DNA of 4,601 nucleotides from a virus (lineage: Duplodnaviria > Heunggongvirae > Uroviricota > Caudoviricetes). The DNA is taken from positions 1-4,601 of IMG/VR virus record IMGVR_UViG_2545824644_000011; one strand, 5' to 3'. How positions within the stretch are numbered: the stretch's first letter is position 1; the number at the start of each line of letters is the position of its first letter. The notes under the pieces are model-generated. The model was given only the letters and a program-made list of their open reading frames with translations, was not told the DNA's origin and did not search any database. This document shows positions 1 through 4,601 of this stretch, piece after piece. Made by a program: the position numbers and the translations under genes.

Positions 1-289
<289 letters not shown>

Positions 290-710
290 GTCTCCGGCCA
301 ACGTGACGGTTTCCATCCTGTCCACTGAGGGCGACGGCACAGCAACGGAGGCGTTGCTTAATACCGTTCGCGCCGTTCTGAATGCAGAGGATACCCGCCC
401 GGTGGCCGACCGCCTGACCGTACAGAGTGCCAGAATCATGACATGGCGGCTGAATGCAAAACTGTACTTTTACCCCGGCCCGGAATCCGAACCTATTCTG
501 GCCGCGGCAGAATCGTCATTCAGGAAGTGGCTGGCTGAACAGGGGCTTATCGGTCAGGACGTGGCGTTGTCCGCCATTGCTGCCGCACTGCATGTGCACG
601 GTGTGCAACGCGTGGAGATAATCGAACCCACACAGAATATGGCCATCAGCGACATACAGGCAGCGCGCTGTGAGTCATTCACCATCAGTGAAGGTGGGCG
701 CAATGAGTAA
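290..710 (+). pseudogene. Baseplate assembly protein J-like (P2 gpJ family), C-terminal fragment of about 140 aa truncated at its 5' end by the IS insertion
   Basis: The translation ...VRAVLNAEDTRPVADRLTVQSARIMTWRLNAKLYFYPGPESEPILAAAE...LHVHGVQRVEIIEP... resembles the C-terminal half of P2 gpJ-type proteins, which are about 300 aa. The frame is closed by a stop at 285-287 inside the IS terminus, and the only available start is a GTG at 303. The stop TAA at 708-710 overlaps the next gene's start. Confidence 0.7.
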
Positions 711-1233
711 TTCACTGTTACCACCATCAGCCAGCAATTTCATGCGTTGTGCCGAAGCCGTCGGAACACGCATTACAGACATTCCGGTAGACCTCAACAC
801 GCTGTGGTCGCCGGACACCTGCCCGGTGCACCTGCTGCCTTATCTCGCCTGGGCGTTTTCCGTTGACCGCTGGGATCGCAACTGGCCGGAAGAGACAAAG
901 CGACAGGTGATTCGTGATGCATGGCTGATACACCGACACAAAGGGACCATCAGCGCACTGCGCAGGGCCATTGAGCCGCTGGGATACCTCATTCGCGTGT
1001 CTGAGTGGTGGGAGTTCGGCGGAGAACCGGGAACATTTACCGTTGAAGTCGGCACGCTGGACAGTGGCGTGACGGAGGAAATGTATCTGGAAATGGAGCG
1101 GTTGATTGCTGATGCCCGCCCGGTCAGCCGCCACATGACAGGGCTGAATATCATTCAGGAGATCCCGGGGGATATTTTCGCGGCGGCAGCAACTTACGAC
1201 GGTGAAGTCATTACCATTTATCCGGACGATTAA
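703..1233 (+). CDS. Phage tail/baseplate protein I (P2 gpI family), 176 aa
   Basis: ATG at 703 is preceded by AAGGTGGG (691-698) and overlaps the upstream stop. The translation MSNSLLPP...[71 protein letters not shown]...[15 protein letters not shown]... is closely similar to P2 gpI as recalled. The ORF track's start at 670 is probably an N-terminal over-extension. Confidence 0.85.
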
Positions 1234-1235
1234 GC

Positions 1236-3251
1236 ATGAGTACCACAACACGAAAATTTAAAACCATTATCACTGATACTGGTGCCAAAAAATTAGCTCA
1301 GGCTGCCGCGCCAGATGGTAATCCTGTCCGCCTGACTCATATGGCCGTGGGCGACGGTGGCGGCACGTTGCCCACACCAGACAGTAAGCAGACCCGTCTG
1401 GTGCATGAGGTGTGGCGACATACTGTTAATCGCGTCATCCTGGACGCAACACATCAGAACCGCATTATTGCGGAGCTGGTTATTCCTCCTGAAACGGGCG
1501 GATTCTGGATCCGGGAAATTGGTGTATTTGATGAGCACGGCGATTTGATCGCGGTGGGCAATACTGCCGAAAGTTACAAACCAACCGTTGCCGAAGGATC
1601 CGGACGTGCACAAACATTTCGCACCATTCTGACCGTATCCAGCACTGCCACCGTGGCGCTTACCGTGGATAACACCATGGTGATGGCCACAGTGGATTAC
1701 GTGGATGACAAACTGAAAGAGCATGAACAGTCACGACGTCACCCGGACGCCTCGCTGACCGCAAAAGGCTTTGTTCAACTCAGTAGCGCCACTAACAGCG
1801 TGTCTGAAACGCAGGCTGCAACGCCGAAAGCAGTAAAGGCCGCGTATGACCTTGCTAACGGGAAATATACTGCGCAGGATGCCACCACAGCGCGGAAAGG
1901 CCTTGTCCAGCTCAGTAGCGCCACCAACAGCACGTCTGAAGCACTGGCCGCAACACCGAAAGCGGTAAAGACAGCATATGACCTTGCTAACGGGAAATAT
2001 ACCGCTCAGGACGCTACGACAGCACAAAAAGGGATTGTCCAGCTAAGCAGCGCGACTAACAGCACATCTGAAACGCTTGCCGCGACACCGAAAGCAGTGA
2101 AAGCAGCTAATGACAATGCGAATGGTCGGGTACCTTCTGCCCGTAAGGTGAATGGTAAGGCGCTTTCAGCGGATATTACACTGACGCCGAAAGATATTGG
2201 TACGCTTAACTCAACAACTATGTCATTCAGCGGTGGTGCTGGTTGGTTCAAATTAGCAACGGTAACCATGCCGCAGGCGAGTTCTGTTGTTTCAATTACG
2301 TTGATTGGTGGCGCGGGATTTAACGTGGAGTCACCTCAACAGGCAGGTATATCTGAACTTGTTCTTCGTGCGGGAAATGGAAATCCAAAAGGTCTTACTG
2401 GTGCGTTATGGCGACGGACATCGGTTGGATTTACTAATTTTGCATGGGTGAATACATCCGGTGATACCTATGATGTTTATGTTGAAATAGGTAATTACGC
2501 CACAGGTGTTAATATTCAATGGGATTATACCAGTAACGCCAGCGTAACGATTCATACTTCACCAGCATATTCTGCTAATAAGCCGGAAGGATTAACGGAC
2601 GGTTCTGTTTATTCGCTGTATATTTCGCCTCATGAACTTTATCCGGTTGGCGCACCGATCCCTTGGCCATCAGATACCGTTCCGTCTGGTTATGCCCTGA
2701 TGCAGGGGCAGACTTTTGACAAATCTGCATACCCGAAACTTGCAGCCGCTTATCCGTCAGGCGTGATCCCTGATATGCGTAGCTGGACGATTAAGGGCAA
2801 GCCCGCCAGTGGTCGTGCAGTATTGTCTCAGGAACAGGACGGCATTAAATCGCACACCCACAGCGCCAGTGCATCCAGTACGGATTTGGGGACGAAAACC
2901 ACATCGTCGTTTGATTACGGTACCAAGACGTCCAGTTCATTTAACCATGGCACTAAAACCACGAATAGCGCCGGGGATCATTCACACAATATTCCTGTTG
3001 GCAACACTGGTGCTGGTAATGGTGTTTCGGCTGGTTATAACTCAGGGCTTGGCACTGGAAAAACAAGTAACGCAGGGGGGCACTCTCACACAGTAAATAT
3101 TGGCGCACACACTCATACGGTAGGAATTGGCGCACACACACACTCCGTTGCGATAGGTTCACACGGGCATACCATCACCGTTAACGCTACGGGTAACGCA
3201 GAAAACACCGTAAAAAACATCGCATTTAACTATATTGTGAGGCTTGCATGA
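1236..3251 (+). CDS. Tail fibre protein, 671 aa, mosaic: P2 gpH-like N-terminal domain, three tandem 44-aa repeats, divergent central domain, lambda Stf-like C-terminal tip with His-x-His motifs
   Basis: ATG at 1236 lies 2 nt after the gpI stop. The N-terminus (...[27 protein letters not shown]...[48 protein letters not shown]...) is gpH-like. The C-terminus (...[74 protein letters not shown]...[31 protein letters not shown]) matches the lambda side tail fibre terminus. Confidence 0.9.
1764..2132 (+). repeat. In-frame tandem repeat inside the tail-fibre gene: three units of 132 bp (44 aa), starting at 1764, 1896 and 2028; the third unit is partial and degenerate
   Basis: The units encode KG[F/L/I]VQLSSATNS[V/T]SE[T/A][Q/L]AATPKAVK[A/T][17 protein letters not shown][R/Q]. 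Amino-acid identity between units is high, while the DNA differs at many synonymous positions. Confidence 0.85.
3075..3180 (+). other. His-x-His motif array in the tail-fibre tip ([36 protein letters not shown]), presumed metal-coordinating
   Basis: The translation of 3075..3180 shows four consecutive HxH units at a period of about 9-10 aa. Similar HxH repeats occur in tail-fibre distal domains (T4 gp37 and lambda Stf family). At DNA level an imperfect direct repeat of about 27 bp, ...TTGGCGCACACAC..., lies at about 3099-3147. Confidence 0.7.
3238..3242 (+). promoter_or_regulatory. Shine-Dalgarno-like element (TGAGG) for the macrodomain ORF, embedded in the 3' end of the tail-fibre gene
   Basis: TGAGG at 3238-3242 lies 5 nt upstream of ATG 3248. 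The ATG overlaps the tail-fibre stop TGA (3249-3251), giving an ATGA coupling arrangement. Confidence 0.5.
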
Positions 3252-4150
3252 TTACGCTCATTCTTTCTGCACCAGTAACAGAAATGGCTGAAGCATTTAA
3301 GCAGGTATTTGCAAATGCAGATAGTGTGAATATTGTCGGAAAGCCATTTGAAACAATCAGAGAATTTGACTGCATGGTAAGTGCGGCAAATAGTTTCGGC
3401 CTGATGGATGGTGGCGTTGATGCCGCCATTACCGCATTCTTCGGTACTCAGTTACAGTCCCGCGTTCAGAATCATATTCTTCGTGAATATCTCGGCGAAC
3501 AGCCTGTAGGTTCTGCATTTGTCATTGAAACGGGGCATAATCATCACCCCTGGCTGGTACATGCGCCAACAATGCGTGTTCCGTTGACAATTGACGGAAC
3601 AGACGCTGTATATAACGCAACCTGGGCCGCTCTGCTTGCCATCTTTCAGCACAATAAAAACGCAACGACAGACATGAAAATAAAAACAGTGGTATTCCCT
3701 GCAATGGGGGCCGGATGTGGTCAGGTGCCGTTTGAAAGTGTTGCCCGACAGATGAAGCAGGCATGGGATAACTTTAATAAAAAAACAGAATCAATTAACT
3801 GGGAATACGCACAATCTCGCCAGTCGGCAGTATTTGGCACATATGCATACTGTCCGGGTAATTCCGTTTGCCGTTATGCGGATACTAAATATATTGGATG
3901 CGGCGATTATCGGACGTGTTGCTCTCGTTCCGGGCAAGTCTGTATTAACCCTGAACATCAGGCTGATGATGTACTGATACAACATCAGGCTAATAACCGT
4001 TTTCGCCATGGTTCGCATATACACCGGATTAATCCAGAAAATCCCGTAGGTAATGTCACCTCTGGCGCACATAGCCACGGAAGTAGCATCGTTATTGGTA
4101 CTCCTACCCATACGCTCAATAAACAATATTCTGTCTCTGATATTAAGTAG
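3248..4150 (+). CDS. Macrodomain-containing protein, 300 aa: N-terminal macro (ADP-ribose binding/processing) domain of about 180 aa plus a C-terminal extension of about 120 aa carrying a 6-Cys cluster and His-x-His fibre-tip-like motifs
   Basis: The single long ORF starts by overlapping the tail-fibre stop. Residues 43-61 (nt 3374-3430), [19 protein letters not shown], match the macrodomain signature (V/I)NAAN-x-L-x-GGGV-x-x-AI. Residues 148-161 (nt 3689-3730), [14 protein letters not shown], match the second signature (IAFPAISTGVYG-like). The C-terminal part has C202, C208, C218, C224, C225 and C232, then [36 protein letters not shown]. Confidence 0.7.
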
Positions 4151-4156
4151 AGGTGA
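4150..4156 (+). promoter_or_regulatory. Shine-Dalgarno element (GAGGTGA) for tfa
   Basis: GAGGTGA at 4150-4156 lies immediately upstream of ATG 4159 and overlaps the last base of the macrodomain ORF stop codon. Confidence 0.6.
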
Positions 4157-4158
4157 AC

Positions 4159-4601
4159 ATGGATTTCAGAATGAGTGAACAATCACGGACCATAAAAATT
4201 TATAACCTGCTGGCCGGAACTAATGAATTTATTGGGGAAGGTGATGCATACATTCCACCTCATACAGGTCTGCCTGCAAACAGTACCGATATTGCACCAC
4301 CAGATATTCCGGCTGGCTTCGTGGCTGTTTTCAACAGTGATGAGGCATCGTGGCATCTCGTTGAAGACCATCGGGGTAAAACTGTTTATGACGTGGCATC
4401 AGGGGACGCGTTATTTATTTCTGAACTCGGTCCGTTACCGGAAAATGTTACCTGGTTGTCGCCGGATGGAGAGTGTCAGAAGTGGAACGGCACATCCTGG
4501 GTGAAAGATGCAGAAGCAGAAAAACTGTTTCGGGTAAGGGAGGCAGAAGAAACAAAAAACAGCCTGATGCAGGTAGCCAGTGAGCATATTGCGCCACTTC
4601 A
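4159..4601 (+). CDS. tfa: Tail fibre assembly protein (lambda Tfa family), 3'-partial, runs off the window end
   Basis: Hand translation from ATG 4159 gives [147 protein letters not shown] with no stop before the window end. This is nearly identical to lambda Tfa as I recall it. It is missing from the ORF track because it has no stop inside the window. Confidence 0.9.

Follow-up and report, generated by a model that had tools for sequence, protein, structure and literature searches.

Tail-fibre mosaicism is textbook knowledge. In the fibre protein gp37 of phage T4, HxH motifs coordinate iron ions in a trimeric needle, and gp38 can be replaced by lambda Tfa. Exchange of stf among unrelated temperate and virulent phages has been called "well documented", experiments have shown that lambda recombines with two defective prophages, Rac and Qin, where their stf-tfa regions are homologous, and ancient stf exchange has been ascribed partly to associated invertases (PMC3945230). 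The window analyzed here is a stretch of 4,601 nucleotides (positions 1 to 4,601 of the IMG/VR virus record IMGVR_UViG_2545824644_000011), and all the features described below lie on its + strand. Comparison of its tail-fibre gene with these systems indicates, with high confidence, a mosaic: the P2-type anchor is kept, and all that lies past residue ~300 was acquired by horizontal exchange along with the chaperone gene. The same confidence extends jointly to the prediction that the product of this mosaic gene is a trimeric tail fibre.

The tail fibre, its neighbours and its modules

The window opens with the right end of an IS21-family element, IS100kyp (1..289), including the 3' part of istB with its stop at 223 (PF01695 IstB_IS21, E 8e-24). 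This stretch is 99.7% identical to E. coli loci annotated as IS100kyp istB. All prophage matches begin at 290, the prophage being truncated by the element within gpJ. The baseplate protein gpJ, of the P2 J/gp47 family, has lost its 5' part to the IS and is left as a 3' fragment at 290..710 (PF04865 Baseplate_J, profile positions 163-255 of 255), the DNA of which is 96-98% identical to gpJ of P88 and of the DEC5B prophage. It is followed by the baseplate/tail protein gpI (703..1233; 176 residues from the ATG at 703; PF09684 Tail_P2_I, E 1e-50), which is 61% identical to P2 gpI and co-linear with the annotated DEC5B gpI. The earlier note had taken these two upstream genes for P2-type baseplate genes, and both profile matches agree with it. 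On these comparisons, the backbone is that of a P2-like contractile-tail prophage of the Xuanwuvirus/P88 type. Rfam and tRNA scans of the window returned no matches.

The tail-fibre gene, identified as an ATG-to-TGA ORF with domain matches (1236..3251; 671 residues), adjoins gpI, which ends at 1233, giving the gene order gpJ-gpI-fibre as in the P2 gpH type of the Peduoviridae, the family to which P88 also belongs. The E-values of the fibre lie far beyond chance, and an NCBIfam profile search reports no family for either the fibre or Tfa. As judged from segment-wise alignments, the fibre is made up of at least four modules: an anchor, repeats, a middle module and a tip.

The first module (residues 1-154; 1236..1697) is a P2-type N-terminal baseplate-anchor domain (PF12571 Phage_tail_fib, residues 6-153, E 6e-54, above the Pfam cut-off). 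P2 gpH aligns with fibre residues 7-291 at 67% identity (E 3e-118), that is 62% over residues 7-154, 93% over 155-246 and 81% over 247-300. In the segment-wise comparison it returns no significant alignment past residue 300, the distal part thus not being gpH-homologous. Likewise, residues 1-300 are 94% identical to the P88 fibre. The gpH likeness that the earlier note had seen in the N-terminal ~170 residues is therefore real, but its extent was underestimated, since it runs to residue ~300. A tblastn search finds the anchor in 436 phage records, of which the sampled rows are all P2-like or other temperate contractile-tail phages, and in the IMG/VR loci examined it co-occurs only with P2-type gpI/gpJ. 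The PF12571 domain would dock the fibre on the gpJ/gpI baseplate wedge, and such docking would explain why the anchor stays with the P2-type backbone.

The second module (residues 155-300; 1698..2135) consists of a conserved linker and three 44-residue Phage_fiber_2 repeats (PF03406 three times, E 2e-60), visible in the DNA as a 132-nt tandem array at 1764-2159 (TRF: period 132, 2.7 copies). It is 93% identical to P2 H and 62-67% identical to lambda orf-401, and it is common to P2, lambda and lambdoid Stf proteins. Within this module, at 2112, the DNA similarity to P88 stops, while that to phage Chuche stops at 2158. The third module, a middle shaft/knob module (residues 301-468; 2136..2639), is neither P2- nor lambda-like, as neither P2 H nor lambda Stf aligns with it significantly. 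It is 80-86% identical to the fibres of phi458 and of the P1-like phages JL22, Cyrano and CMS-2020a, 82-84% identical to those of Yersinia P2-like phages and 44-54% identical to T-even gp37; by these identities, it is a module common to P1-like Stf and T-even gp37. The Phage_fiber_2 repeats and the middle module together would form the shaft.

The fourth module (residues 469-671; 2640..3251) is the putative receptor-binding tip, with a collar, an HxH needle and a hypervariable head. The collar domain lies at 2649-2789 (PF07484, residues 472-518, E 2e-11), the six HxH motifs of the needle are found at residues 540, 582, 616, 625, 634 and 643, and the hypervariable head region covers about 2926-3101 (residues 564-622). 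The tip matches lambda orf-314, the C-terminus of Stf, over residues 469-671 (E 2e-99), with 91% identity for residues 469-563, 49% for residues 564-622 and 86% for residues 623-671. It also matches the tip of T4 gp37 (PDB 2XGF) with 70% identity over 213 aligned residues (E 1e-81), and in terms of these alignments it is as much T4 gp37-like as lambda-like. Even against DEC5B, otherwise 96-100% identical, positions 2900-3200 vary (59-77% identity). In the last 203 residues, beyond the collar, the HxH needle would bind metal and the small head would contact the receptor; a trimeric needle with HxH-bound iron ions is predicted for this fibre from its homology to 2XGF. Further downstream, the 5' 443 nt of tfa (4159..4601, running off the window end) encode a lambda-type tail fibre assembly chaperone. 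Over 147 residues, it shares 94% identity with lambda Tfa, and its DNA is 92% identical to that of lambda; the gene has its own Shine-Dalgarno sequence (GAGGTGAACATG). The tfa fragment in the window has no BLAST match with P2 G, indicating that the downstream chaperone is not of the gpG type. Encoded just downstream of the tip cassette, the lambda-type Tfa would fold the tip.

These results fit the proposal of the earlier note that the C-terminal ~200 residues and tfa are lambda-like. Its picture of a P2 anchor joined to a lambda tip holds for both ends but not for the two-part layout, as an extra module that is neither P2- nor lambda-like occupies residues 301-468. Uniform similarity to a single fibre lineage was not seen, the segments matching P2 H up to residue 300 and lambda and T4 from residue 469.

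The ORFs of the fibre and of the macro-domain gene described below are intact, as is that of tfa as far as the window reaches. With its gpJ cut by IS100kyp, this prophage copy is probably unable to build virions on its own, yet it would still be able to donate fibre modules to incoming phages. We lean slightly towards the reading that fibre, macro gene and tfa are here the silent cargo of a dead prophage, their sole role in this genome being that of a module reservoir for recombination with infecting phages. The loss of the 5' part of an essential baseplate gene points this way, as does the donation of stf-tfa sequence to lambda by defective prophages (PMC3945230). The integrity of the three ORFs and the strong purifying selection on the macro gene across lineages weigh on the other side; however, this selection reflects the history of the family and not that of this copy, and the window spans a part of the prophage. 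The silent-cargo reading concerns this copy only and is compatible with the mosaic origin of the fibre by horizontal exchange.

The macro-domain gene between fibre and tfa

An optional passenger gene of 300 codons (3248..4150) separates the fibre from tfa, its ATG overlapping the fibre stop (ATGA). It encodes a macro-domain protein (PF01661, E 8.5e-19, above the cut-off; phrog_2613, E 1e-145) comprising the macro domain (residues 1-190), an invariant Cys4/His motif (residues 198-241) and an HxH tail (residues 246-300). Both phosphate-binding loops of the macro fold signature, N-x6-GG[VLI]D and G-x-G, are present. An alignment of 13 diverse homologues shows no variation at N48, at G55-G56-V57-D58 or, in the GAGCG loop, at G154, A155, G156 and G158. 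A search of the PDB reports a weak match with TTHA0132 (E 1e-5), and the NCBIfam equivalog matches are all far under their cut-offs (53 bits vs 246). For the C-terminal 111 residues, only the protein's own phrog_2613 was matched, with nothing credible in Pfam or the PDB. AlphaFold2 prediction from a 13-sequence alignment gave an unusable model (mean pLDDT 52.9, the C-terminal 110 residues below 50). Membership in the DarG antitoxins of DarTG systems was rejected because the PADLOC match with DarG is sub-threshold (E 0.007, 13.9 bits, no stretch passing); the neighbours are the fibre and tfa, with no DarT.

The macro domain is under strong purifying selection across lineages (dN/dS 0.04-0.19), and the Cys4/His region gives values of 0.07-0.23. 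The HxH tail resembles the C-terminal needle strand of the fibre (hhalign probability 93.8%, with a shuffle control). We considered that it might be a strongly conserved functional needle, but its dN/dS of 0.4-0.9 indicates relaxed constraint, so that the tail is more probably the remnant of a captured fibre 3' end, or else a fast-evolving segment. A promoter/terminator scan returned fewer matches than it did for shuffled sequence; neither the macro gene nor tfa had one upstream. The searchable literature yielded no specific description of a macro gene in fibre loci, and the paper on Gifsy-1 Stf does not mention the gene (PMC12312913). The macro passenger is a modest observation and apparently an undescribed one.

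The gene is a precise 906-bp insertion that separates the stop of the fibre gene from the start of tfa, lambda similarity stopping at 3252 and resuming at 4159. E. coli A1 agrees with the window in backbone and fibre type, and its tfa is 98.6% identical; its junction is lambda-like, the macro gene being precisely absent. In complete E. coli genomes, the gene occurs at 131 places, as compared with 8511 for lambda-type tfa (~1.5%), or in 128 genomes out of 5426, while lambda-type tfa is present in 4437. Wherever it occurs among the 45 IMG/VR loci and all inspected GenBank/RefSeq loci, the order is tip-macro-tfa. In Escherichia, the IMG/VR loci span 13 P2-like, 13 lambdoid and 4 P1-like backbones. 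The order is also found in the lambdoid Salmonella prophage Gifsy-1, an ST131 prophage, P1-like phage-plasmids and the P2-like Salmonella phages SEN4/5. Macro identity co-varies with tfa identity (Spearman 0.78), with a lower value against tip identity (0.22). Distant homologues in the jumbo phages phiRSL1 and FBKp24 lie among metabolic or early-type genes and not among fibre genes. Taking their "tail protein" name as a sign of real fibre linkage is contradicted by this context, and the name looks like annotation transfer.

The macro gene is very unlikely to be a moron local to this prophage lineage, unconnected with the fibre cassette and not travelling with it. Its lack from ~98% of lambda-type tip/tfa cassettes and from the otherwise matching A1 prophage, the metabolic neighbourhood of the jumbo-phage homologues and the failure of macro identity to track tip identity are what such a moron might leave; however, its invariable position between a collar-type tip and tfa, on three types of Escherichia backbone as well as in Gifsy-1 and SEN4/5, the covariation with tfa and the likeness of its C-terminal tail to the fibre needle strand all argue against it. 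We favor instead the view that the macro gene rides along with the tip-chaperone cassette as the latter passes between P2-like, lambdoid and P1-like phages. The earlier note had suggested such joint travel, which the shared order in these three groups supports; its placement of the gene at the 3' edge of the exchanged block was mistaken, the gene lying in the interior, between tip and tfa. A more specific role is speculative and, in our view, rather unlikely: this subfamily (macro domain, Cys4/His motif and HxH tail, confined to the interval between a gp37/Stf-type tip and tfa and translationally coupled to the fibre) might be a hitherto undescribed accessory of the fibre cassette. It would be an ADP-ribose-processing enzyme, expressed late and possibly both assisted by Tfa and associated with the virion, which is delivered or deployed at entry against ADP-ribosylation or NAD-derived immune signalling and has spread via the most recombinogenic phage module.

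Breakpoints and exchange of the distal fibre

Breakpoints were taken from BLAST boundaries and from identity in 100-bp bins. On the left, DNA 290-2112 is 95-96% identical to P88/Xuanwuvirus phages (93-100% in 100-bp bins), with nothing beyond. On the right, similarity to the P1-like JL22 begins at 2208, while that to lambdoid phages, P1-like plasmids, Gifsy-1, Chuche and lambda all begins at 2638-2655 and runs on into tfa. Over 2638-3251 and 4159-4601, identity to lambdoid phages is about 93% overall and 99% in the best 100-bp bins, and that of JL22 to the tip and tfa DNA reaches 100% per bin. P88 itself carries a P2-type distal fibre and a chaperone that is 95% identical to P2 gpG. The same tip and tfa are found behind P2-type, lambdoid (J-lom-Stf N-terminus) and P1-like backbones. 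With the P88 match ending at 2112 and the lambdoid match starting at 2638, these boundaries speak for a horizontally shuffled host-range module, as had been proposed from the sequence at the outset.

Vertical descent from a P2-like ancestor without any exchange, the N-terminus being kept by baseplate contacts and the C-terminus being lambda- and T4-like through ancient ancestry and unequal rates, is extremely improbable. It could appeal to some ancient motifs common to all long phage fibres, to Phage_fiber_2 repeats in the fibres of P2, lambda, P1 and Mu, and to an N-terminus that is the more conserved part among P2-like phages. It does not account for the highly similar tip and tfa DNA of lambdoid phages and JL22, where the similarity starts abruptly and where the remaining DNA has no detectable counterpart in the P2-like backbone, nor for P88, the closest backbone relative, being unrelated after residue 300 and carrying a gpG-type chaperone. 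Lastly, an artefact of assembly or window joining, conceivable in view of the IS element in the window since IS copies often cause misassembly, can be dismissed for practical purposes: at least seven complete E. coli genomes and phage Chuche carry gpJ, gpI, fibre, macro gene and tfa in co-linear order with 95-96% identity, the exact 671-residue protein is present on 120 independent public contigs (recorded as "phage tail protein [Escherichia coli]"), and two further IMG/VR loci (L050 and L051) match the whole of 290-4601 with 97-99% identity.

Horizontal exchange thus being retained, its most likely route would be homologous recombination at sequence islands common to unrelated phages. Four such islands are proposed, namely the Phage_fiber_2 repeats, whose DNA is 76-90% identical between P2, lambda and lambdoid Stf, the collar start, the invariant 3' end of the fibre gene and tfa. 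Together they would define "tip + chaperone" as the portable unit; a further, nested swap would occur at the head region. As invertases have been implicated in stf exchange (PMC3945230), the route may also have been site-specific; the window contains neither an invertase nor an inversion site.

The fibre is one more clean natural case of modular host-range exchange, with little that is new in the fibre itself: the P2-type anchor would stay with the baseplate, while the gp37/Stf tip and its chaperone move between myoviruses, siphoviruses and phage-plasmids. Its natural junctions could guide the engineering of chimeric fibres on P2, tailocin or lambda chassis: one falls where the Phage_fiber_2 repeats end (residue ~300), one where the collar begins (residue 469), and others flank the head (residues 564-622). 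The macro gene carries more potential, as a conserved gene of an enzyme family embedded in, and spread by, a tip-chaperone cassette. If its product proves to be virion-associated or an anti-defence enzyme, host-range cassettes would also carry counter-defence cargo.

Comparison with known systems

The locus shares with P2 gpH/gpG and with P88 the position of the fibre gene after gpJ-gpI, the PF12571 anchor, and the linker with its Phage_fiber_2 repeats. It differs from them by the lack of similarity past residue ~300, by a chaperone of the lambda Tfa type instead of the gpG type, and by the intervening macro gene. With the Stf-Tfa systems of lambda and lambdoid phages (e.g. PhiR26_1), it shares the C-terminal 203 residues and Tfa; DNA identity is 82-92% with lambda and higher with other lambdoid phages (about 93% overall, up to 99% in the best bins). 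In contrast, the N-terminal domain of lambda Stf is absent from the window fibre, orf-401 matching only in the repeats (residues 103-296, 28-37% identity), and in the loci examined the lambdoid Stf N-terminus is found only together with J and lom. The head is 43 residues shorter than that of lambda and 49% identical to it, and the middle module is not lambda-like. Moreover, the stf stop and the tfa start overlap in lambda, whereas the macro gene separates them here.

The T4 gp37 tip (2XGF) has in common with the window the collar, the six HxH motifs and the invariant C-terminus, although the window fibre is much shorter and sits on a temperate P2-like backbone. Since the residues aligned with the gp37 head differ, the receptor may differ as well. 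The Punavirus JL22 resembles the window in its middle module (86% amino acid identity) and tip (91%), with DNA identity of up to 99-100% over 2500-2900. A lambda-type tfa comes next in JL22 and, past the region that the window covers, a serine acetyltransferase as in the DEC5B relative. It departs from the window in its P1-type N-terminus and baseplate, in the head region (2900-3200, 72-88% identical) and in having no macro gene. Lastly, Gifsy-1 (STM2588, STM2588.1n and STM2586) and SEN4/SEN5 exhibit the same stf-macro-tfa order, with the ATGA overlap, a collar-type tip and a Tfa homologue, and their macro proteins are 68-69% identical to that of the window. Gifsy-1, however, is a lambdoid siphovirus, its macro protein is shorter (274 residues, with fewer HxH repeats), and DNA identity amounts to 66-78%.

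Gene layout and the insertion sequence junction

All features of the 4601-bp window lie on the + strand. An IS21-family element occupies nucleotides 1-289 with its right end, including the 3' part of istB (PF01695; 99.7% identity to copies annotated IS100kyp), and this end sits in gpJ, with the junction at 289/290. Since every prophage-type database match starts at nt 290, the 5' part of gpJ and anything upstream have been removed by the element. The remaining 3' fragment of this baseplate gene (290-710) covers only positions 163-255 of the PF04865 profile and is followed by gpI (703-1233; PF09684, 61% identity to P2 gpI), as the earlier note had proposed for the upstream genes. Downstream come the fibre ORF (671 aa; 1236-3251, exact coordinates), a macro-domain ORF of 300 aa (3248-4150; PF01661) whose ATG overlaps the fibre stop codon, and, preceded by a Shine-Dalgarno sequence, a partial tfa of 147 codons that runs off the window end (4159->4601). 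Because gpJ is an essential baseplate gene, the loss of its 5' part to IS100kyp indicates that the P2-like prophage is defective in the source strain, and the window copy more likely serves as a reservoir of modules than belongs to a viable phage. The DNA derives from E. coli. A protein identical to the fibre is listed on 120 contigs as "phage tail protein [Escherichia coli]", and one identical to the macro protein on 171.

Modules and breakpoints of the tail fibre

Pfam assigns residues 6-153 of the fibre to the P2-type N-terminal fibre domain (E 6e-54), finds three copies of the Phage_fiber_2 repeat after it (E 2e-60), and places a Collar domain at residues 472-518 (E 2e-11). The fibre was compared segment by segment with the authentic P2 and lambda proteins. 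Residues 7-154 share 62% identity with P2 gpH and have no match in lambda Stf, while residues 155-246 and 247-300 share 93% and 81% with gpH, and 62% and 67% with orf-401, one of the parts of lambda Stf. Residues 301-468 return no significant match to either protein. From residue 469 onwards gpH is no longer matched, and lambda identity amounts to 91% (orf-314, another Stf part; residues 469-563), 49% with a 43-residue deletion (Stf; 564-622), and 86% (orf-314; 623-671). The partial Tfa shares 94% identity with its lambda counterpart and does not match the P2 chaperone gpG. Given these segment identities and the Tfa match, the mosaic fibre predicted from sequence is confirmed well beyond what chance would give, and two points are corrected. 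The lambda-like character of the C-terminal ~200 residues and of tfa holds, as does the likeness of the N-terminus to P2 gpH; the latter, however, is not limited to ~170 residues but runs to residue ~300. Likewise, both the P2-like and the lambda-like parts exist, but they are not the only ones: the domain-wise comparison, in which P2 identity ends at ~300 and lambda tip identity starts at 469, leaves a third module (301-468) between them.

Each module has its own circle of relatives. The N-terminal 160 residues are present in 436 phage records, and every row sampled belongs to a P2-like phage or another temperate phage with a contractile tail (among them Peduoviridae, phiCTX, Ralstonia RSY1, and Clostridioides myophages); this N-terminus is backbone-specific. 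The middle module (residues 293-469) is 80-86% identical to fibres of the P1-like phage-plasmids JL22, Cyrano, and CMS-2020a and of phi458, 82-84% to some Yersinia P2-like phages, 56-65% to Salmonella phages such as ST64B, and 44-54% to T-even gp37. The tip (469-671) contains six HxH motifs. It is represented in 653 records, among them lambdoid Stf, P1-like Stf, and T4-like gp37, and shares 70% identity with the solved receptor-binding tip of T4 gp37 (PDB 2XGF, E 1e-81).

At the DNA level, a 100-bp identity profile against 14 references, together with BLAST boundaries, places the module limits sharply. P88 (Xuanwuvirus), the closest backbone relative, is 93-100% identical from 290 to ~2110 and returns nothing beyond, JL22 similarity (78-100%) runs from 2208 onward, and the repeat region 1800-2100 (76-90%) is the only DNA common to P2, lambda, and lambdoid Stf. 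Similarity to lambda, four other lambdoid/P1-like loci, Gifsy-1, and Chuche starts at 2638-2655, at the opening codons of the collar domain, and runs into tfa. The boundaries at ~2110, 2208, and 2638-2655 bear out the view of a horizontally shuffled module on a P2-type anchor. The P88 fibre matches that of the window at 94% identity over residues 1-300 but shows no relation beyond, and its chaperone is 95% identical to P2 gpG; relative to P88, the window lineage has therefore exchanged everything distal to residue ~300 along with the chaperone.

A nested mosaic lies within the tip itself. The DEC5B O55:H7 prophage is 96-100% identical to the window everywhere but 2900-3200 (59-77%), and the IMG/VR locus L012 displays the reverse pattern. 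The tip contains a hypervariable stretch (nt ~2926-3101, residues 564-622), the sole part of the tip-chaperone cassette that varies between otherwise near-identical copies. Within it, residues ~588-611 correspond in the alignment to the distal portion of the gp37 tip, which we take to be the "head" domain of 2XGF. Because of this coincidence, the stretch is probably a nested host-range swap. The Phage_fiber_2 array (132-nt/44-aa unit; 1764-2159) is polymorphic in copy number, with three units in the window and four in the near-identical DEC5B/O157 prophage fibre (719 aa; L001 3947-6106).

The macro gene between fibre and tfa

Lambda similarity ends at nt 3252 and restarts at 4159. The lambda fibre-tfa junction reads ...GTGAGGCTTGCATAATGGCATTCAGAATGAGTGAA, and that of the window ...GTGAGGCTTGCATGATTACG...[macro]...TAGAGGTGAACATGGATTTCAGAATGAGTGAA. 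The E. coli A1 prophage matches the window in its P2-like backbone (97%), fibre type, and tfa (98.6%), but has the lambda-like junction without the macro gene. As both junctions lack exactly this gene, it is a precise, gene-sized presence/absence polymorphism. It does not lie at the 3' edge of the exchanged block, where the earlier note had placed it, but inside the block, between the fibre stop and tfa.

The order tip-macro-tfa crosses backbones: it is found in P2-like prophages and phages (DEC5B, O157:H7 PV15-279, Chuche, Salmonella SEN4/5), in lambdoid prophages (Gifsy-1, and an ST131 prophage with J-lom-stf-macro-tfa), and in P1-like phage-plasmids carrying darA. In 45/45 IMG/VR loci (13 P2-like, 13 lambdoid, 4 P1-like, 15 of undetermined backbone), a collar-type tip ends at the macro start and tfa lies downstream; tfa starts 12-34 nt past the macro match end in 39, and in the remaining 6 the match is truncated or the gene disrupted. 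The identities of macro and tfa rise and fall together (Spearman 0.78, the loci not being independent), whereas those of macro and tip do not (0.22); the variable head region dominates tip identity. The recurrent order, the agreement of all 45 loci, and the co-variation with tfa support the proposal of a macro gene moving together with tip and chaperone, though as an optional member. Of 5426 complete E. coli genomes, 128 contain it (131 places) and 4437 contain lambda-type tfa (8511 places), so that it is found at ~1.5% of these places. Plasmid p1919D3-2 (L009 2758-5880) has a fibre gene in fragments and a frameshift in the macro gene, and the latter is cut short or interrupted in four IMG/VR loci (L051, L053, L055, L056). 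With several macro-bearing cassettes decayed, the macro gene is dispensable in at least some prophages.

Database searching yields 1714 relatives of the macro protein (E <= 0.001), which come from Escherichia, Shigella, Salmonella, Citrobacter, and Erwinia and are annotated either as "macro domain-containing protein" or as "phage tail protein". When 13 diverse members are aligned, three parts emerge: a macro core with invariant N48, GGVD (55-58), and G154/A155/G156/G158 of the GAGCG loop (154-158), an invariant Cys4/His motif (C202, C208, C225, C232, H237), and a C-terminal tail of one to four GAHxH repeats. The dN/dS ratios are 0.04-0.19, 0.07-0.23, and 0.4-0.9 for the macro domain, Cys4 motif, and HxH tail, respectively. 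In our reading, the enzyme core would be functional and under strong constraint. The last ~50 residues align with the C-terminal needle strand of the fibre in hhalign profile-profile comparison (probability 93.8%, score 47.9; 100 column shuffles, 11.8 +/- 2.5, maximum 22.4), and the tail probably represents a fibre 3' end that the gene captured on entering the cassette and that persists as a weakly constrained vestige. A scan of the window revealed no independent promoter for the gene, and its ATGA overlap points to expression that is late and translationally coupled. Distant homologues in jumbo phages do not adjoin fibres. A survey of viral NAD/ADP-ribose systems reports phage Macro genes in early regions or among morphogenesis genes, their products being likely packaged (PMC9503650). 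The searchable literature, including this survey and the Gifsy-1 Stf paper (PMC12312913), returned no description of a macro gene in a fibre cassette.

Exchange, neighbouring genes, and known fibre systems

By analogy with the named homologues, the fibre would be a homotrimer docked by its PF12571 domain onto the gpJ/gpI wedge, with a receptor-binding collar-needle-head tip that needs Tfa to fold. New combinations may arise by homologous recombination at islands common to unrelated phages, namely the Phage_fiber_2 repeats, the collar start, the invariant fibre 3' end, and tfa. Experiments have shown lambda recombining within stf-tfa homology with Rac and Qin, two defective prophages, stf exchange between unrelated temperate and virulent phages is "well documented", and associated invertases have been suggested to take part in ancient exchanges (PMC3945230). 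The window contains no invertase. The chimeric fibre is a correct but ordinary finding, and the macro passenger is the sole element that might reward follow-up.

Outside the window, related cassettes of P2-like, P1-like, and JL22 relatives carry an opposite-strand serine O-acetyltransferase gene after tfa or, in one plasmid, an LPS N-acetylglucosaminyltransferase and an acetyltransferase instead (L001 7636-8208, L008 6488-7033, L058 5666-6142, L062 5216-5788, L009 6520-8206). These are candidate surface-modification (lysogenic conversion) genes, and the mobile block may extend beyond tfa. In the ST131 lambdoid prophage (L010 6604-8503), genes with reverse-transcriptase and SLATT domains directly follow stf-macro-tfa and resemble a defence-type moron that occupies the same hotspot. 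P88 possesses, past its own fibre and chaperone, a second, inverted tail-fibre fragment and chaperone pair (L057 7301-8580), which resembles the invertible host-range segments of Mu and P1; no such segment is present in the window.

Engineered P2 gpH-gp37 chimeras exist (PMC9594776). The window fibre shares its N-terminus and synteny with P2 gpH-type fibres, but neither their distal domain nor their gpG chaperone, and it shares the tip and chaperone of the Stf/gp37 family, but not the Stf N-terminus. As it resembles each family only in part, it is a genuine chimera that belongs to neither whole-protein family.
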